A stretch of 48,835 bases of DNA from a virus. Lineage: Duplodnaviria; Heunggongvirae; Uroviricota; Caudoviricetes. The notes under the pieces are model-generated. The model searched no databases. It was given only the letters and a program-made list of their open reading frames with translations, and was not told the DNA's origin. A program made the position numbers and the translations under genes. Of the stretch, positions 3,045-10,374 are shown piece after piece (position 1 is the first letter of the stretch; the number at the start of each line of letters is the position of its first letter). The stretch spans positions 1 through 48,835 of the IMG/VR virus record IMGVR_UViG_2740892051_000004; one strand, given 5' to 3'.

Positions 3045-3447
3045 TAATCAAAATTTAAAGGCGCATGCTTTACGAACAGCAGTCTTACGCTACTACATTG
3101 CTGATGCATTCATTTCCTTAATGGTGCGTGTTCATAATGAACCTGTTTATATTGAAGATGGCGAACGAATAGAACTCTCCCACGAAAAAGTGGTGAGTAA
3201 TATTATTTACCATATTGAAATGCCGTGGGTGAATGAGTTTGGGGCTGATGCTGGTTGCATACTGGCCGCAGAGAAACTGGAAAAAATGCTTAAACCAGGC
3301 TTTATGTCAGAAAATATTCGCCTGTCAGTTTTTGGTGTCACAGAGATGCGTGAGGTTTACCGGGATATTATTTTCGGAGCACCTGATGGCGAACTACCCG
3401 AAGGTTTTGAATTTGTGAAGCCGGAAGGTCAGGAGGTGCTGCTGTGA
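3037..3447 (+). CDS. hypothetical protein upstream of primase (position of P4 eps/orf151)
   Basis: 136 aa ORF overlapping primase start by 4 nt. Confidence 0.55.
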   Translation: MNNNQNLKAHALRTAVLRYYIADAFISLMVRVHNEPVYIEDGERIELSHEKVVSNIIYHIEMPWVNEFGADAGCILAAEKLEKMLKPGFMSENIRLSVFGVTEMREVYRDIIFGAPDGELPEGFEFVKPEGQEVLL

Positions 3448-6131
3448 AAACACCGTCTGTATCCACGATTTCCGGAGCTGCAATTGGGCGCTGGCCTTAT
3501 ATCCTGTCAGCATTAGGTATTAAAGTACCGTCCGCAGGACATCATGGGGCTTGCCCTGCCTGTGGTGGAAAAGATCGTTTTCGACTGGACGATAAAGCGG
3601 GGCGAGGGACGTGGTTTTGTAATCAGTGCGGTCATGGCGATGGTCTTGATCTGGTTCGTCTGGTGACAGGAAGAAAGATAAAAGAAGTCGCCGGGATGGT
3701 ATCTGAGGCGCTTGCATTACCAGAAATACAGGAGAAGCCCGCATTGCCAGCCAGGAAAAAGGCCGCAGGAAAAGAAGCGGGCGCGGAGCGATATACCAGA
3801 CTCAGACAGCAGTCCTGCAATGGTGAGCCGGTCTATCTGACAAATAAGAGCTTACACGGGTATTCACTTCCCTTGCTGTCACAGCCTTTGAATCTGGCCG
3901 GAATAACATTTTCCACCGGTTCATTACTGCTGCCTTTGACGGATATTTCCGGGAATATTACTGGTGGCCAGCTTATCAATCCTGACGGGGATAAAAGTCT
4001 GCTGCCCGGTAGCCAGCTGTCTGGCGCATTCATTGCCCTGACCGATATACCCGCTGAAACACCTGAACAGGTGATTATCACTGAGGGTTTTGCCACGGCG
4101 CTTACCGTCAGTCTGCTGACTGAAGGATGGATCGTGGCGGCTGTCGCTGCCACCAATTTACTGAAGGTGACGGAGCAGATCCGAAAACGCTGGCCGGAAA
4201 CCCGGATCATTCTGGCCGGAGATAATGATCTGGCTGACGGCAAAGAAAACACCGGGCGTATTCAGGCAGAGAAAGCCGCCAAAGCGGTGGATGGCTGGGT
4301 AACGCTCCCTCCGGTACGCCATAAGGCTGACTGGGATGATTATCGGCAGGAAGTGGGGAAAGAACGGGCGAGAGATGCCTTTCGTGAAGAAATGACGCTG
4401 CATGGCAAAGGGCAGACCCGTTTACCAGAAGGGTTCCGGCTGACAAAAGAATATTTGTGGTACGACAAGCTGGTTAATAAGTCTGATGGTGATACAGAGA
4501 TACGTAATATCAAAATTTGCAGTCCGTTGCGGGTGACGGCAATCACCAGTGATGCTGATGGAAGTAATTACGGGCGTTTGCTGGAATGGGAAGATACCAA
4601 CGGAAACAGCCGTAAATGGGCAATGCCGATGGAGATGCTGGGCGGTAGCGGGGAAGAACTGCGCCGCGTTCTGCTGGTTAACGGGCTTTCTTACATCAAC
4701 ATTAACGGCATGGCCAGAGCATTCCTGATGGAATATATCTCGCTGTGTAAACCGGACAGAAAAGTAACCTGTGTGAATAAAACTGGCTGGCACGGCGGGG
4801 TTTACGTTCTCCAGGATGAAGTGATAGGGCGCGAAGCCCAGTCAGTCATCTTACAAACATCGAGTGTGCAGGGGCGTGATTTTCGTGTCAGCGGCACATC
4901 AGAGGGCTGGCGTGAAAATATAGGCCGTTATTGCATAAAGAATGCCCGTCTTGCCTTTGCGGTGAGTCTGGCATTTGCTGCCCCCCTTCTGAAACTGGTT
5001 GGTATCGGCGGTGGAGGTTATCACCTCAAAGGGGAATCCACAGACGGTAAAACCACGACGATGAAAGTGGCTGCATCAGTATGTGGTGGAACAGATTTCT
5101 GGCATACGTGGCGGGCGACGGGGAATGCCTTAGAAGGAACGGCGAGCCGCCGCAATGATGCCACGCTGATGCTGGATGAAATCCGGGAGGTTGACGGCAG
5201 GGAGGCGGGAAATATCGCTTATATGCTGGCTAACGGGCAGGGCAAAGCCAGAGCCAGAACAGATGGTTCGGTAAGGGAAACCAACCGCTGGAATCTGTTG
5301 TTTCTGTCTACCGGGGAACTGTCACTGGTAGAGCATGCGGCAAGCGCCGGGGAACGTACGTATGCCGGGGTTGAGGTCAGAATGATCCAGATCCCAAGCG
5401 ATTCGGGCAAGTATGGCGTGTTTGAAGAACTTCATGGCTTCAGTAGCGGGAAAACCCTGGCTGAGCATCTTGAGCAGCACGTAGCGCATTATCATGGTGC
5501 ACCATTCCGCGACTGGCTGTATTGCCTGACCGCTGATCTGCCGGAACTGACCAGTCAGGCGAAAGCCTTATTGAAAGAGTATACCCGAAGGCTGACGCCG
5601 GAAAATGCCGGGAATCAGGTTGGCCGGGCTGTTACCCGTTTTGCTCTGGTTGCGATGGCCGGGGAGCTGGCCACAAAAGCGGGCATCACAGGATGGCCGG
5701 AGGGAGAGGCCTTTCGTGCCGCTCAAAGCTGTCTGGCTGCATGGATGGCTGACCGGGGCCATACAGCTAATCAGGAAGATAAAGCGGCACTTGAACAGGT
5801 TCGGGACTTCATGACGCGTAATCAGTTCAGTCGGTTTGCTGACTGGAATGACGACAGGAACCGGCCTGTTTCAATGATGGGATTCAGAAAAGTCGATAAA
5901 GGAGACAACGTGACAGAGCCGGTTGTGACGTTCTACGTTCTCCCGTCAGGCTGGAAGGAGATCTGTAAGGGATTTGACTCGCGTAAGGTGGCCAGGTTGT
6001 GTGTGGACGCGGGCTGGCTGAAACCCGGTGAAGATGGCCGGACGCAAAACAGCATTCGCCTGCCAGAAATAGGGCTTAAACGTGTGTACCAGTTCAATAC
6101 ACAGGTACTGGGAAGCGCTGAACCTGAGTGA
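3444..6131 (+). CDS. P4 alpha-type primase-helicase
   Basis: 895 aa; N-terminal zinc ribbon CPACGG...CNQCGH, TOPRIM-like 'ITEGF...ILAGDNDL', Walker A 'GESTDGKTT'. Confidence 0.9.
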   Translation: MKTPSVSTISGAAIGRWPYILSALGIKVPSAGHHGACPACGGKDRFRLDDKAGRGTWFCNQCGHGDGLDLVRLVTGRKIKEVAGMVSEALALPEIQEKPALPARKKAAGKEAGAERYTRLRQQSCNGEPVYLTNKSLHGYSLPLLSQPLNLAGITFSTGSLLLPLTDISGNITGGQLINPDGDKSLLPGSQLSGAFIALTDIPAETPEQVIITEGFATALTVSLLTEGWIVAAVAATNLLKVTEQIRKRWPETRIILAGDNDLADGKENTGRIQAEKAAKAVDGWVTLPPVRHKADWDDYRQEVGKERARDAFREEMTLHGKGQTRLPEGFRLTKEYLWYDKLVNKSDGDTEIRNIKICSPLRVTAITSDADGSNYGRLLEWEDTNGNSRKWAMPMEMLGGSGEELRRVLLVNGLSYININGMARAFLMEYISLCKPDRKVTCVNKTGWHGGVYVLQDEVIGREAQSVILQTSSVQGRDFRVSGTSEGWRENIGRYCIKNARLAFAVSLAFAAPLLKLVGIGGGGYHLKGESTDGKTTTMKVAASVCGGTDFWHTWRATGNALEGTASRRNDATLMLDEIREVDGREAGNIAYMLANGQGKARARTDGSVRETNRWNLLFLSTGELSLVEHAASAGERTYAGVEVRMIQIPSDSGKYGVFEELHGFSSGKTLAEHLEQHVAHYHGAPFRDWLYCLTADLPELTSQAKALLKEYTRRLTPENAGNQVGRAVTRFALVAMAGELATKAGITGWPEGEAFRAAQSCLAAWMADRGHTANQEDKAALEQVRDFMTRNQFSRFADWNDDRNRPVSMMGFRKVDKGDNVTEPVVTFYVLPSGWKEICKGFDSRKVARLCVDAGWLKPGEDGRTQNSIRLPEIGLKRVYQFNTQVLGSAEPE

Positions 6132-6156
6132 TTATCGCGTGAGTCTTATTTTTATG

Positions 6157-6347
6157 AGGTAACACTGGTAACAGAGGTAACACCCGTTACTGATGCGGTT
6201 CTTCAGTGTTACCAGTCAAAAATACTGACTGGTAACAGAGGTAACAAAAAATGGTGTGTTACCACGCGTTACCTCTTGATTTTGCTAACTGGTAACAGAT
6301 TAAATCCTTTTAAATCAATAGCGTTACACGTGTTACCAGTGTTACAC
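6157..6347 (+). repeat. iteron array (satellite ori/crr-like)
   Basis: More than 12 copies of GGTAACA / TGTTACC in both orientations immediately after primase stop. Confidence 0.6.
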
Positions 6348-6413
6348 GTTCAGAACAAGAGGTAGGGATCCAAATCCCTTCTTCTGGCGGGCAACAGTAT
6401 AGGGCACAGAACG

Positions 6414-6686
6414 ATGAAGATGATGAGAATGTACTGCCCCACATGTCAGGCAGTAGCACGGATAGGTAAAACAAACAGGAAACACCCACAACTGTACGAT
6501 GTGTACTGCTATTGCTCTAATGTGGAGTGCGGTCACTCGTTTGTGATGAATGTTGCTTTCTCCCATTCCGTTAGTCCAAGCGCGCTGAACGGGCAGGGAA
6601 GGGTTAAAGAGCTGATTGATGCAATTCCACCCGAGGAACGGGAAAAGGCTTTAAAGTTGCTGCTGGCTGCGCAAAAGAATGGGTAA
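6414..6686 (+). CDS. Ogr/Delta-family zinc-finger late transcription activator
   Basis: 90 aa; 'CPTCQ...16 aa...CYCSNVECGH' C4 zinc finger as in P2 Ogr / P4 Delta. Confidence 0.7.
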   Translation: MKMMRMYCPTCQAVARIGKTNRKHPQLYDVYCYCSNVECGHSFVMNVAFSHSVSPSALNGQGRVKELIDAIPPEEREKALKLLLAAQKNG

Positions 6687-7365
6687 AGTATGCGTCGGGA
6701 ATGGCCGATCTGTTCCCGGAACCTGAACACAGGATTTCAGTTTATACGGTCATAAAATTATTATTTTTCAACTGGTTATCTTCTTCATGTTTCACAAACC
6801 TTCATAAAATCACACACCTAAAATTAATTATCCATTTAATATCATAGAGTTGCGTATTCAGGCCATAGATTCGACGGACAGTAAAACTGAAAAAAAATGA
6901 ATTTCTTTTCATTCTTTTCAGTTCCTGTATCGCAGTACATCTCGAGGACTGGCACGGACTGGCGGTATCGTTTGTAAAAAATCCAGGCTGAAAATTTTTA
7001 GTGATATGAAAACCGCAGGCGGGTGCGGTGTAGTGCCGTTTTGGTCTGTCGAGCGTATATTTTCCTTTTTCACGATTGCTGCATATCAAAACGAATGTGC
7101 AGATATCAGGCCGTGTCAAACCGTGAATCGTGGAGCCTAAATGCCCAAACTACGTTTGTAGACCTAGCTAGGGGAAGGTTTCCACATATACTGCTACCTA
7201 TCTTCCAGTCGCTGGTGAGGATCAAGGTAAGCTAACTGGTGAACAAGAAAAGTACTTTCGTATCTTGCGTACTCGTTTTTTTTGATTAGTATGTACAGGT
7301 AGTAACTGGATGGTGAGAATTCGTCATAACTTATCAAATTGCATGATGTTTATAGAGTATGAGTA

Positions 7366-8247
7366 ATGAGTCATAATAAAAAGGAATATGCTAAATTTTT
7401 CCGTCGCCCCATTTTTTCATCCTTAGCAAAAGGTAAGGATATTTCGGATTTATTTGGGAGTTTTGATTCTTACTGCTATGAAACACTGTTTTCAAACAAT
7501 GATAATAATGAACATGAGATTTCACTAAGGGATTTATTTACATCATTATATGATTTTTTGCGTCTGAATTATAGAAATGAATATGTTTATAAGACAGCAC
7601 TTGTCAATAAAATAATATTCGGTAAGCACAGCCCAAAAACAAGTTCGTCGTCCATAGAGTTACCAATTAAAAACTCTATAGTGGATGTTGCGGTGTTTAA
7701 TGGTACGTCTACAGCTTACGAGATTAAGACAGAGTATGATTCACCAAAAAGGTTGATTACTCAAGCCCCTGATTATTTGGATGTTTTTGATAAAGTGTAT
7801 ATAGTTACACATCCAGAGTATGCAAGTAAATATTGTGCTTTAAATCTCCCCAGAGTGGGAGTTATGGTTTTGAATAAAAAAGATCAATTGAGTGTCATTA
7901 AGGAGGCAGATTCAAATATTGATTATATTAAAAGTGACAGCTTGTTTTCAGTTCTTAGAAAGGAAGAGTTCTTAGCTATAATAGAAGATTACACTTCAAC
8001 TAAAATAAATATGCCTAACGGATTGGTTTATGAATATTGTAAAGAGATATTCATGCAGATGCCATTAAACATAGCAAATAAATACTTTATCTCTGCTATG
8101 AAAAAAAGATGTAACGATAAAGTTTTTTTGGATTATATTTATTCTCTTCCAGCATGTTTACGTGTTTTAGGTTATGCAACACCATTATCAAGAAAGCAAA
8201 AAGAATTCATCATGAATTTGATGGATGTAAAAATTAAAATTTGTTGA
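7366..8247 (+). CDS. PD-(D/E)xK nuclease-like protein, first gene of AT-rich cargo cassette (candidate defense)
   Basis: 293 aa; 'SIVDVAVFNGTSTAYEIKTEY' gives D...E-x-K catalytic signature; Lys/Asn/Ile-rich, strongly AT-rich DNA. Confidence 0.7.
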   Translation: MSHNKKEYAKFFRRPIFSSLAKGKDISDLFGSFDSYCYETLFSNNDNNEHEISLRDLFTSLYDFLRLNYRNEYVYKTALVNKIIFGKHSPKTSSSSIELPIKNSIVDVAVFNGTSTAYEIKTEYDSPKRLITQAPDYLDVFDKVYIVTHPEYASKYCALNLPRVGVMVLNKKDQLSVIKEADSNIDYIKSDSLFSVLRKEEFLAIIEDYTSTKINMPNGLVYEYCKEIFMQMPLNIANKYFISAMKKRCNDKVFLDYIYSLPACLRVLGYATPLSRKQKEFIMNLMDVKIKIC

Positions 8248-8268
8248 TATCCTCAGGAGTTGTAAGTT

Positions 8269-9219
8269 ATGTATAGCCCATATTTGTATGCGAGAAGTAC
8301 AGAGTTATTATGCCTTAGGGACCTCGTTGCGAAGGGAGTTAGCCTAAATGGTCTGCTACCAATTTTAGAACCAATTAACGTCAATACGAGAAATTTATTA
8401 ACATGTTTAAATGTTTGGAATTCTGACATAATTGTTATCCTTAATCCTTATCAGGAAGATTTTTCTTCACACAATAACGTCTTAACTTTAAATCAAAATT
8501 TATCAAGTGTATTAACAAATAAAAATAATATCATCTCTGGATATCTTATTCAGCCCAATACAACGATTAATGATATTAATAATTGGTTGAATGCTAACTT
8601 AAATAGACGAGTTGCACTTCTATATGATAATCCATCATTATCCAACTCTGATATTCAGTTGTTGGCGACAAATCAATTGATTAGTTATCATGTTGTTTTA
8701 AATAATAAAATGCTTCCTAATCAGTGCGCTCTTCTTCCTTTGTCGAAGTTAATTATTATTAGCGATAACTTTAGAAAGTTAGCAAAAAATGCTGATTATA
8801 ATGGGCCGGAACTTTTCACGCACGCACATCAATTCGTGGGACAAAATTACTTAGGATTTGGCGATTATACAATTACTGGCCAGGTACTAGATCTTGGAGG
8901 TGGTCAACCTTCTGCTGTTGCCGCACATTTGGTGTTCAAGAATTTACAAGCGAATACAGTTTGGATTCGTCATTTTGTATCAAGCAACACGCAACGAGGA
9001 AGTTCAAATGTTACTGCAAAATTTTTAGATGTTTCAGATCAAATTACAAATCTTGTTCCCCAACATCCAACCCAGTTTGGCAGCAACATTGGTCTTAACT
9101 ATTATTATTACAATAGTCAACCAACTGTAAGGCATTTCCCTGGGTTGCCAAAAAACAAACAGTATCAAATTACTCACCATATTTGTTTCATGCTGGATTT
9201 AATAGCAGGTCGTATTTAA
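8269..9219 (+). CDS. hypothetical protein, second gene of cargo cassette (partner of nuclease-like protein)
   Basis: 316 aa, 21 nt after upstream gene, same AT-rich composition; N-terminus 'MYSPYLYARSTELLCLRDL'; 3' end overlaps integrase stop by 21 bp. Confidence 0.7.
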   Translation: MYSPYLYARSTELLCLRDLVAKGVSLNGLLPILEPINVNTRNLLTCLNVWNSDIIVILNPYQEDFSSHNNVLTLNQNLSSVLTNKNNIISGYLIQPNTTINDINNWLNANLNRRVALLYDNPSLSNSDIQLLATNQLISYHVVLNNKMLPNQCALLPLSKLIIISDNFRKLAKNADYNGPELFTHAHQFVGQNYLGFGDYTITGQVLDLGGGQPSAVAAHLVFKNLQANTVWIRHFVSSNTQRGSSNVTAKFLDVSDQITNLVPQHPTQFGSNIGLNYYYYNSQPTVRHFPGLPKNKQYQITHHICFMLDLIAGRI

Positions 9220-10374
9220 TAAGCTAGCGTACCATTCCATCATTACTTGTCGATCTTTAATATATTGCGCATGATTGTAAGTACCTCGAATAGAGTTCTT
9301 ATCAACATGCGCAAGCTGCATTTCAATCCAGGCACTTTCAAACCCATGCTCATGCAAGATGGTGCTCATGGTATGCCTGAAACCGTGACCCGTTAACCGA
9401 CCGTGATAACCCAGTAGTTTTATCACTTTGTTGATGCTGGCTTCGCTCATTGGTTTACTGACGTCATTCCGGCCAGGGAAAACGAGGCTGTAATTCCCTG
9501 TTATTTCTTGCAGCTTTTTCAGGATATTGATCGCCTGAGTTGATAACGGAACCAGATGGGGGCGGCGTTTCTTCATCCGTTCTTTGGGGATCTCCCATAA
9601 GGCATTATCTAAATCAAACTCAGCCCATTCCGCTGCACGTAGTTCAATTGTTCGCACGCCTGTTAGCATCAACAGCTGCGTGGCGTATTTGGTAACTAAA
9701 CTGCCCTGATAGTTATCCAGAGCATTAACGAACTCGGGCAACTCGCTTTCAGTCAGGAACGGGAAGTGTTGGGTTTTAGGTTTGTTGAGTGCGATAGCTA
9801 AATCGGGTGCAAAATTATACTTTGCTCTACCAGTGGCAACAGCATAACGAAGCACTTCACCACAGCGGCGGCGGATCTTACTGGTTTGCTCTAGCGCACC
9901 TCTTTTCTCTATTTTTTGCAGGACGGTTAGCAGTTCTAATGGTTCAATCTGCTCAATTGGGCGCTGGCCGATAAAAGGAAAAATATCCTTTTCCATACAA
10001 TTGAGAACCTCTTTTGCATAACCCTCTGACCAGGTGGCTTTTTTCGATGAGTGCCATTCTCTGGCCACAGACTCAAAGCTGTTCTCATGCGCGAACTGCA
10101 AAGCAATCTTATCTGCTTTTCTGGCTTCACTTGGGTTTATCCCGTTGGCTAACATCGAACGCGCTTCATCACGTTTGGTACGTGCCTGTGCCAACGACAC
10201 ATCGCCATATACGCCAAAGGAAATCATCTTAGGCTTACCTGCAAAGCGATAGCGAAAACGCCAGCCTTTACTGCCCGCTGTGTCGATCAGGAGTGATAGC
10301 CCCATACCATCGTTAAGCGTATAGGGTTTGTCCTTCGGTTTTGCTCTTTTTATTTGGATGTCAGATAGCAGCAT
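9199..10374 (-). CDS. int: tyrosine integrase, P4 family with arm-type N-terminal domain
   Basis: Start set at internal Met 'MLLSDIQIKRAKPK'; C-terminal catalytic 'HGFRHT...LAHVD...RGTYNHAQY'. Confidence 0.9.
   Translation of the reverse strand: MLLSDIQIKRAKPKDKPYTLNDGMGLSLLIDTAGSKGWRFRYRFAGKPKMISFGVYGDVSLAQARTKRDEARSMLANGINPSEARKADKIALQFAHENSFESVAREWHSSKKATWSEGYAKEVLNCMEKDIFPFIGQRPIEQIEPLELLTVLQKIEKRGALEQTSKIRRRCGEVLRYAVATGRAKYNFAPDLAIALNKPKTQHFPFLTESELPEFVNALDNYQGSLVTKYATQLLMLTGVRTIELRAAEWAEFDLDNALWEIPKERMKKRRPHLVPLSTQAINILKKLQEITGNYSLVFPGRNDVSKPMSEASINKVIKLLGYHGRLTGHGFRHTMSTILHEHGFESAWIEMQLAHVDKNSIRGTYNHAQYIKDRQVMMEWYASLLNTTCY

Follow-up and report, generated by a model that had tools for sequence, protein, structure and literature searches.

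The DNA at 6144–6360 of the window (the whole stretch of DNA analysed here, 48,835 bp in length) is very probably the vegetative replication origin of a phage-satellite island of ~10.5 kb that resides at a tRNA-Arg gene (argW) in E. coli, with the protein encoded by the adjacent pri-rep gene, PriRep, as the cognate initiator. On the basis of its sequence and of its analogy with characterised islands, the element is best read as an iteron origin of the SaPI/PICI type, serving a self-loading PriRep and embedded within a satellite that is otherwise P4-like. The initial annotation of this DNA had proposed a satellite origin served by the adjacent primase-helicase, and this proposal is well supported by where the array lies, by its architecture, by the comparison between loci and by the kind of protein that pri-rep encodes. 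Such origins have been described before in islands of staphylococci and E. coli, and the present element illustrates the class clearly without being unexpected.

The array follows pri-rep directly, such that the TGA stop codon (6129–6131) is separated by 26 bp from the array start, with the first repeat at 6158, whereas 67 bp separate the end of the array from the next ORF, which encodes an Ogr/Delta-like protein (6414–6686). The heptamer GGTAACA or its reverse complement TGTTACC has 12 exact copies in the window, with nine of these copies falling within 6158–6337 and only three in the remaining 48.6 kb. By comparison, dinucleotide-preserving shuffles of the whole window, which provide the chance expectation, contain a mean of 3.8 heptamers and never reach 12. 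Similarly, the GTAAC/GTTAC core is present 13 times in 6159–6345, compared with a maximum of four and a mean of 0.29 in any other 191-bp window, the Poisson probability of the array being ~1e-17 by its cores and ~1e-23 by its heptamers. In addition to the nine exact copies, two sites carry one mismatch (CGTTACC, 6267–6273 and TGTTACA, 6340–6346), one site at a conserved position carries two (CGTTACA, 6322–6328), and an extra partial core is found at 6186–6190, beyond the twelve sites. Leaving this partial core aside, six sites are oriented forward and six in reverse.

The repeats are conserved between homologous loci, the intervening spacers diverge freely and contain indels, and the annotation of the identical E. 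coli locus has no RefSeq feature between pri-rep and ogr, which together indicate that the array DNA is non-coding. Only short antisense ORFs touch it, at the right edge, and an Rfam search returned no structured-RNA match in the array. The GC content of the array is 40%, compared with 47% for the window. The initial annotation counted more than a dozen heptamers, which is slightly generous given nine exact copies, three degenerate ones and one partial core, but its further observations hold, namely that the repeats lie densely and in both orientations in non-coding DNA immediately downstream of the primase-helicase.

The twelve sites follow a strict layout between 6158 and 6346 (>>> 24 < 17 >> 10 << 17 > 24 <<<, where arrows give the orientation of the sites and numbers the spacers in bp), with a period of 9 bp within clusters. 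Because this layout is its own reverse complement, the array forms a dyad of two six-site halves with an axis at ~6252. The left half opens with iterons 1–3 on the + strand, three direct copies of GGTAACA with a 9-bp period (6158–6182, starting at 6158, 6167 and 6176), followed 24 bp further on by iteron 4, a TGTTACC on the – strand (6207–6213), and, past a spacer of 17 bp, by iterons 5 and 6, two copies of GGTAACA on the + strand (6231–6246, starting at 6231 and 6240). The right half begins 10 bp beyond iteron 6 with iterons 7 and 8 on the – strand, TGTTACC and CGTTACC (6257–6273, starting at 6257 and 6267), continues after 17 bp with iteron 9, a GGTAACA on the + strand (6291–6297), and closes with iterons 10–12 on the – strand, CGTTACA, TGTTACC and TGTTACA (6322–6346, starting at 6322, 6331 and 6340), which mirror iterons 1–3 and share their 9-bp period. 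The final spacer of the right half, the 24-bp AT-rich sequence gattaaatccttttaaatcaatag (6298–6321), is a candidate DNA-unwinding segment and holds a conserved AAATCAA, within which ATCAA is conserved across iteron types in the alignment of loci. The sequence of the array is only partly symmetric, with the lowest regional GC content in the right half (23% at 6290–6319), and the AT-rich segment is accordingly off-centre, being restricted to this half. A possible IHF site in this spacer (AAATCAA...) is not claimed, since its distance to TTR departs by one from the consensus.

The dyad symmetry extends beyond the iterons into the flanks TCTTAT and ACAAGA, and is also evident as an inverted repeat between 6144–6181 and 6323–6360. 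The left outer flank, TCTTAT (6144–6149, + strand), is located 8 nt outside iteron 1 and is invariant, or nearly so, in an alignment of 22 loci. Its counterpart on the right, ACAAGA (6355–6360, + strand; reverse complement TCTTGT), is likewise located 8 nt outside the last iteron, and a motif resembling A(A/T)AAGAG is found in other loci too. Further to the right lies the motif CTTCTTCTGGCGGGC (6378–6392, + strand; consensus CTTyTTCTGGCrGGC), which travels with the array. This motif is positioned ~31–32 bp right of the last iteron and is present in almost all loci, with every repeat type and in both island types, whereas in one locus (L035) it is found inverted on the opposite side of the array. 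Its reverse complement resembles, at 16 of 20 positions, the codons near the 3' end of pri-rep that specify the invariant motif RLPEIG. A 20-nt inverted repeat (6058–6077 and 6373–6392) brackets the array, but the stem that it could form, whether in RNA or in DNA, is not supported, because no compensatory changes are observed between loci.

The pri-rep gene (3444–6131, + strand) encodes an 895-aa protein in which matches to Pfam, P4 alpha and PDB entries identify a Zn-ribbon/Toprim primase, a DUF927 helicase and a C-terminal domain. The Pfam domains comprise Zn_Ribbon_Prim (residues 33–68), Toprim_3 (210–307) and DUF927 (331–614), and the catalytic residues are invariant, including the four cysteines, E214/G215, D260/D262, the Walker A GKT and the Walker B DE. 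Similarity to P4 alpha is limited to residues 1–317, which cover the Zn-ribbon/Toprim primase (38% identity), whereas the sequence matches in the PDB are SaPIbov1 Rep (8tch, 1.5e-13) and Cch of SCCmec (5dgk, 1.3e-12). The C-terminal domain (residues 811–895, encoded by 5874–6128 on the + strand) is predicted to be winged-helix-like and is the candidate reader of the iterons; in a model of moderate confidence (mean pLDDT of 75.6) it is structurally closest to 8tch, to the wHTH protein TcpK and to 5dgk. Sequence and predicted fold alike mark the helicase and C-terminal domain as homologues of the corresponding parts of SaPIbov1 Rep and Cch. No similarity was detectable between the C-terminus of PriRep and the C-terminal origin-binding domain of P4 alpha (hhalign probability of 0.2%), and no close relative of PriRep was found among phage records, where the best match reaches 34% identity over the helicase part only. 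The protein family is common in Enterobacterales, with 817 matches at E ≤ 1e-20.

The linkage between gene and array extends across a comparative set of 55 homologous loci (numbered with the prefix L), drawn from one genome per species, of which 49 include enough downstream sequence. A dense array directly follows the pri-rep stop codon in 46 of these 49. In the three exceptions (L038, L044 and L055), each from a different species, an ORF encoding a 333-aa tyrosine-recombinase/integrase-like protein intervenes between gene and array (8667–9800 in L038 and L044). The arrays behind this ORF are intact, with 10–12 copies of the repeat GTGGGAACA and a left flank resembling TCTTAT (TATTAT in L038), which shows the left flank moving together with the array. 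Moreover, ~20 islands that have neither a capsid nor an ogr gene retain the array directly after pri-rep, indicating that the array belongs to pri-rep and not to the downstream gene.

The layout of the array is also shared. Of 50 sequences, 37 have the left half (three forward sites, 24 bp, one reverse site, 16–18 bp and two forward sites), and all of the others except L035 come close to it, one of their sites scoring as degenerate or wrongly oriented in a scan that allows one mismatch. At one mismatch, 22 of the 50 sequences have the complete layout with these spacers, and the number rises to 25 once the window, L004 and L016 are added, in which the tenth site has two mismatches, while the right half is rearranged in many capsid-less islands. 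In contrast to the layout, the repeat word itself varies by locus, comprising GGTAACA (type A, the word of the window), GGGTAACA, GGTGTAACA (type B), GGTGGAACA (type C), GTGGGAACA, GGTKACA, GGATACA and GTACTACATGTA. At least eight words on one scaffold constitute a signature of co-evolving initiator-origin pairs. We note that in all three genomes with two islands the two carry different words, namely C and B in Pantoea stewartii (L026 and L053), B and A in Pantoea leporis (L042 and L043) and A and C in Enterobacter intestinihominis (L004 and L050). These differences are consistent with selection against cross-talk, the three cases being statistically non-significant.

The words can differ between loci whose PriRep proteins are nearly identical, such as L017 and L019 (98%), L014 and L010 (96%) and L008 and L009 (95%), which allows the part of the protein that tracks the word to be located. 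We compared five word-switch pairs, two of which share L008, with 12 same-word pairs of similar divergence. Within residues 811–895, differences are enriched in the switch pairs (34 of 218, compared with 33 of 578 in same-word pairs; odds ratio 3.05, p 2e-5), and the enrichment is stronger within residues 857–884 (21 of 218 compared with 13 of 578; odds ratio 4.6, p 3e-5), whereas the primase part displays no enrichment across the same five and 12 pairs. Position 870 changes in four of the five switches and position 846, where the predicted recognition helix starts, in two of the five. In addition, Arg866 accompanies the 7-mers and type F, and Lys866 accompanies the G-extended 8- and 9-mers GGGTAACA, GGTGTAACA and GGTGGAACA. 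These comparisons, which involve few and partly dependent switches, lend good support to the C-terminal winged helix as the predicted reader of the iterons; the assignments of residues 866 and 870 are suggestive only, and we claim no residue-level code.

The co-variation of the repeat word with the C-terminus of pri-rep also bears on the possibility that the array is an operator or promoter for the Ogr/Delta-like gene and late genes, bound by Ogr/Delta, the HTH protein of the island or a helper factor. The location of the Ogr/Delta ORF directly downstream of the array would suit such a role, as would the finding, in a simple scan, of no terminator between pri-rep and ogr. Furthermore, ~57 bp before the start codon of the ogr-like gene there is a TGT-N12-ACA motif (6340–6357) that shares bases with both the last iteron and the right flank and resembles the Ogr/Delta site of P2 and P4 late promoters. 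However, a simple scan of the + strand between 6050 and 6750 revealed no sigma-70-like promoter, and twelve sites arranged in a 200-bp dyad would make an atypical operator. Because the array persists in the ~20 loci that lack ogr and its word tracks the C-terminus of PriRep, we regard the operator explanation as very unlikely. A dual role at the right edge of the array, where the origin and an ogr promoter may overlap, would be compatible with the origin that we favour.

The replication origin proposed here closely resembles those of the SaPIs. SaPI Rep is both an initiator and a self-loading helicase, with a C-terminal winged helix that recognises iterons, and the SaPI origin, located immediately behind rep, consists of 6–12 iterons around an AT-rich centre, with two or more on either side that point in opposite directions (PMC9371898). 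Each of these elements has a counterpart in the present island, where the array lies directly 3' of pri-rep, as it does in the homologous loci; where twelve sites include an AT-rich segment (6298–6321) placed between the forward site at 6291 and three reverse sites; and where the candidate initiator has a Rep-type DUF927 helicase and a predicted C-terminal winged helix. The co-variation expected for an initiator and its origin is seen in the eight words on one scaffold and in the enrichment within the winged helix (p 2e-5), which we consider to be support rather than proof. The element is nevertheless distinct in several respects. The iterons of SaPIbov1, SaPI1 and SaPI5 are 5–6 bp in length, compared with 7–9 bp here in a Gram-negative host, and the strict 6+6 dyad with fixed spacers of 24/17/10/17/24 bp sets the present array apart from the SaPI origins, as do the fused primase, which is of the Zn-ribbon/Toprim type of P4 alpha, and the surrounding island, which is P4-like in its C4 RNA immunity, Ash, delta and P2-family cos.

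A related arrangement is known from E. coli itself, where a segment of EcCICFT073 that contains pri-rep and ori drives plasmid replication and mutants of rep or ori fail (Fillol-Salom et al. 2018, PMC6092414). As in the island studied here, EcCICFT073 has a single origin immediately after pri-rep, in which 7-bp repeats (GTCTACC/GGTAGAC) in both orientations flank AT-rich DNA. It differs in the repeat word, in the regulation of the island by AlpA and in having a lambdoid helper, and its Pri-Rep is of the D5_N/DUF5906/Pox_D5 type, with no similarity to the DUF927 protein described here. Two published E. coli PICIs, CFT073 and RM13514, have a D5-type Pri-Rep. The supplements of PMC6092414 contain no iteron sequences for a Pri-Rep of the DUF927 type, and a search of CC-licensed PMC papers and bioRxiv found no link between GGTAACA and iterons.

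The initial annotation drew its analogy instead with ori and crr of P4 and with the C-terminal domain of alpha, and part of this analogy stands. P4 is likewise a satellite of P2-family phages, with a homologous N-terminal primase and a repeat array, crr, located right after alpha; its 8-mer GGTGAACA, which can be written as GGT(G)AACA, is one base away from the GGTAACA used here; and the order of sites in P4 ori (>>> < >>) is that of the left half of the present array. The analogy fails for the bipartite organisation, the helicase and the C-terminal domain. In P4, crr (4291–4590) and the type I repeats of ori (9310–9413) are ~4.5 kb apart, whereas the island has only one dense cluster, which is built from the 7-mer GGTAACA and not from the P4 type I iteron TGTTCACC (GGTGAACA). 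Similarly, alpha combines Toprim and D5/SF3 modules with a Pox_D5-type C-terminus, of which PriRep shares only the primase, its helicase being of the DUF927 and not the D5_N/DUF5906 type. Judged from these sequences, the SaPI/PICI origin is the closer match in having a single array, in the position of that array and in the family of the initiator.

The resemblance to P4 nevertheless invites a different reading of the array, as a cis-acting helper that, like crr, binds the initiator and stimulates initiation at a separate origin. The P4 element that occupies the place right after alpha is crr and not ori, and the repeat words GGTGAACA and GGTAACA are alike. Conversely, the array has an AT-rich segment of its own and a dyad layout, and the helicase and C-terminal domain of PriRep resemble those of SaPI Rep, in whose system the array that follows rep serves as the actual origin (PMC9371898). 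Since no second repeat cluster exists anywhere in the island or at its left end, a crr-like helper appears very unlikely.

Iteron plasmids such as pSC101, R6K, RK2 and F share with the proposed origin the placement of initiator sites beside an AT-rich unwinding element and the use of a winged-helix Rep. Their iterons, however, are 17–22 bp in length, mostly direct and spaced by about two helical turns, whereas the repeats here are 7 bp in length, lie in both orientations and have a 9-bp period. In addition, plasmid Reps are not helicases and depend on DnaA and DnaB/C, in contrast to the candidate initiator, which has helicase and primase domains of its own. The origins of SV40 large T and papillomavirus E1 likewise pair an initiator-helicase that has its own origin-binding domain with a dyad of short repeats beside an easily melted AT-rich segment, where a head-to-head pair of hexamers is assembled. 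The viruses concerned are eukaryotic, have four pentanucleotides rather than twelve heptamers and show no relation in sequence or family, so that the analogy is functional only.

Positions 1 to ~10,600 of the window fall within the island that contains the proposed origin, which has entered E. coli at the tRNA-Arg flanked by dsdC and yfdC. At ≥90% identity, the array and its flanks (6100–6420) occur in 449 of the 5,426 complete E. coli genomes, in each case on the chromosome. Reading from the left, the island encodes an HTH protein, a 286-aa ORF, a P2-family major capsid protein, an Ash/Icd-like ORF, two small ORFs and the 895-aa PriRep, followed by the array, and then by the Ogr/Delta-like gene, a cos-like site, an sce7726/sce7725 pair and the integrase. 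The C4 RNA, Ash (epsilon), delta (Ogr/Delta), the alpha-like primase, the integrase at a tRNA gene and the P2-family cos are all features of P4-like satellites, whereas homologues of sid and psu are absent from the island, which carries the P2-family capsid gene instead. This gene content identifies the island as a P4-like satellite with a capsid gene in place of sid/psu. The capsid gene (1129–2133) is preceded by the 286-aa ORF, which has no Pfam or PADLOC match (region 246–2133) and is possibly a scaffold; the presence of its own P2-family capsid and the lack of sid/psu suggest that the capsid strategy of the island is unlike that of P4.

Rfam locates a C4 antisense RNA (2466–2553, 81 bits), isrK (2308–2385) and a c4-a1b1 target (2295–2347) inside the Ash/Icd-like ORF (2221–2811), and the region 2295–2553 is predicted from these matches to be the CI RNA immunity region of P4 type. 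The location of these RNAs suggests that part of the ORF call may really represent RNA genes. The sce7726/sce7725 pair (7366–9219) lies between cos and the integrase, and its first protein matches the PADLOC model 'cll'. The cII of P4 is annotated as belonging to the sce7726 family, and the pair occupies the place of variable defence cargo in P4-like satellites; elsewhere in the comparative set it is found only in L029 and L043. Beyond the window, the left end of the island has a (GCCCA)n microsatellite of ~12 units in the interval from dsdC to the HTH gene (5566–5629 of L001).

The cos-like site (6886–7063) is similar to both ends of the Cronobacter phage ESSI-2 (Peduoviridae), with 75% identity over 148 bp to the right end and 89% over 46 bp to the left end, and its sequence GCGGGTGCGGTGTAG (7019–7033) is identical to a 15-mer that the ESSI-2 record carries at each of its two ends. 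The site lacks the canonical P2/P4 19-mer. The resemblance of the site to the cos of ESSI-2 suggests that the helper is an ESSI-2-like phage of the P2 family. Satellites need a packaging site compatible with their helper, and some centromeres, for instance parC of plasmid R1, are likewise built as short-repeat arrays, but it is most improbable that the array itself serves for packaging (as cos or pac) or as the centromere of a plasmid-partition system, given the separate cos-like site with its ESSI-2 15-mer, the lack of any match to the array DNA in 50,697 phage records, the finding of no gene for a partition ATPase or a ParR/ParB-like protein in the scanned ORFs of the island, and the variation of the word between near-identical islands, which would be unexpected for a site that must match the terminase of a helper. 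As a packaging site the array is excluded in practice. No P2/P4 19-mer occurs within three mismatches in the window or in L001.

For the origin that we propose, we suggest a mechanism in which the C-terminal winged-helix-like domain of PriRep would recognise the 7-bp iterons, with the twelve sites divided into two half-origins of six that mirror each other. On these, a pair of helicase assemblies, probably hexameric like the SaPI Reps, would then load facing opposite ways with no need of a separate loader, melting would begin in the AT-rich 24-bp spacer, and the fused Toprim primase would prime synthesis, leading to bidirectional replication after excision of the island. Binding, hexamer stoichiometry, the site of melting and the start of replication are features that we infer for this element. 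The sites of each half-origin span ~90 bp with uneven spacing, and occupation of every iteron by one winged helix of one hexamer would therefore need bending of the DNA or flexible C-terminal domains; this one-to-one correspondence may be wrong. It is conceivable, but rather doubtful, that the 6+6 dyad is a template for a head-to-head double hexamer with one winged helix per iteron, in which a few natural changes close to the recognition helix and first wing strand (positions 846 and 866–871) re-code the specificity. If this were true, a single scaffold would support eight or more initiator-origin pairs that are mutually orthogonal, the different repeat words of co-resident islands would be explained, and the element would offer an easily dissected bacterial counterpart of the SV40 and E1 origins.

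These findings assign an origin and a likely initiator to a satellite island carried by 449 of the 5,426 complete E. coli genomes. The dyad layout is unusually clean, and the established view of such origins is unchanged. A P4-like satellite appears to run a replicon of SaPI/PICI style that is fused to a primase of P4 type, which would represent a further case of module swapping between satellite families that have been argued to have evolved independently. Proteins that are 95–98% identical yet are associated with different words provide a natural specificity series on an invariant scaffold, which lends itself directly to mapping how the winged helix of a helicase reads DNA and to building compatible replicons.
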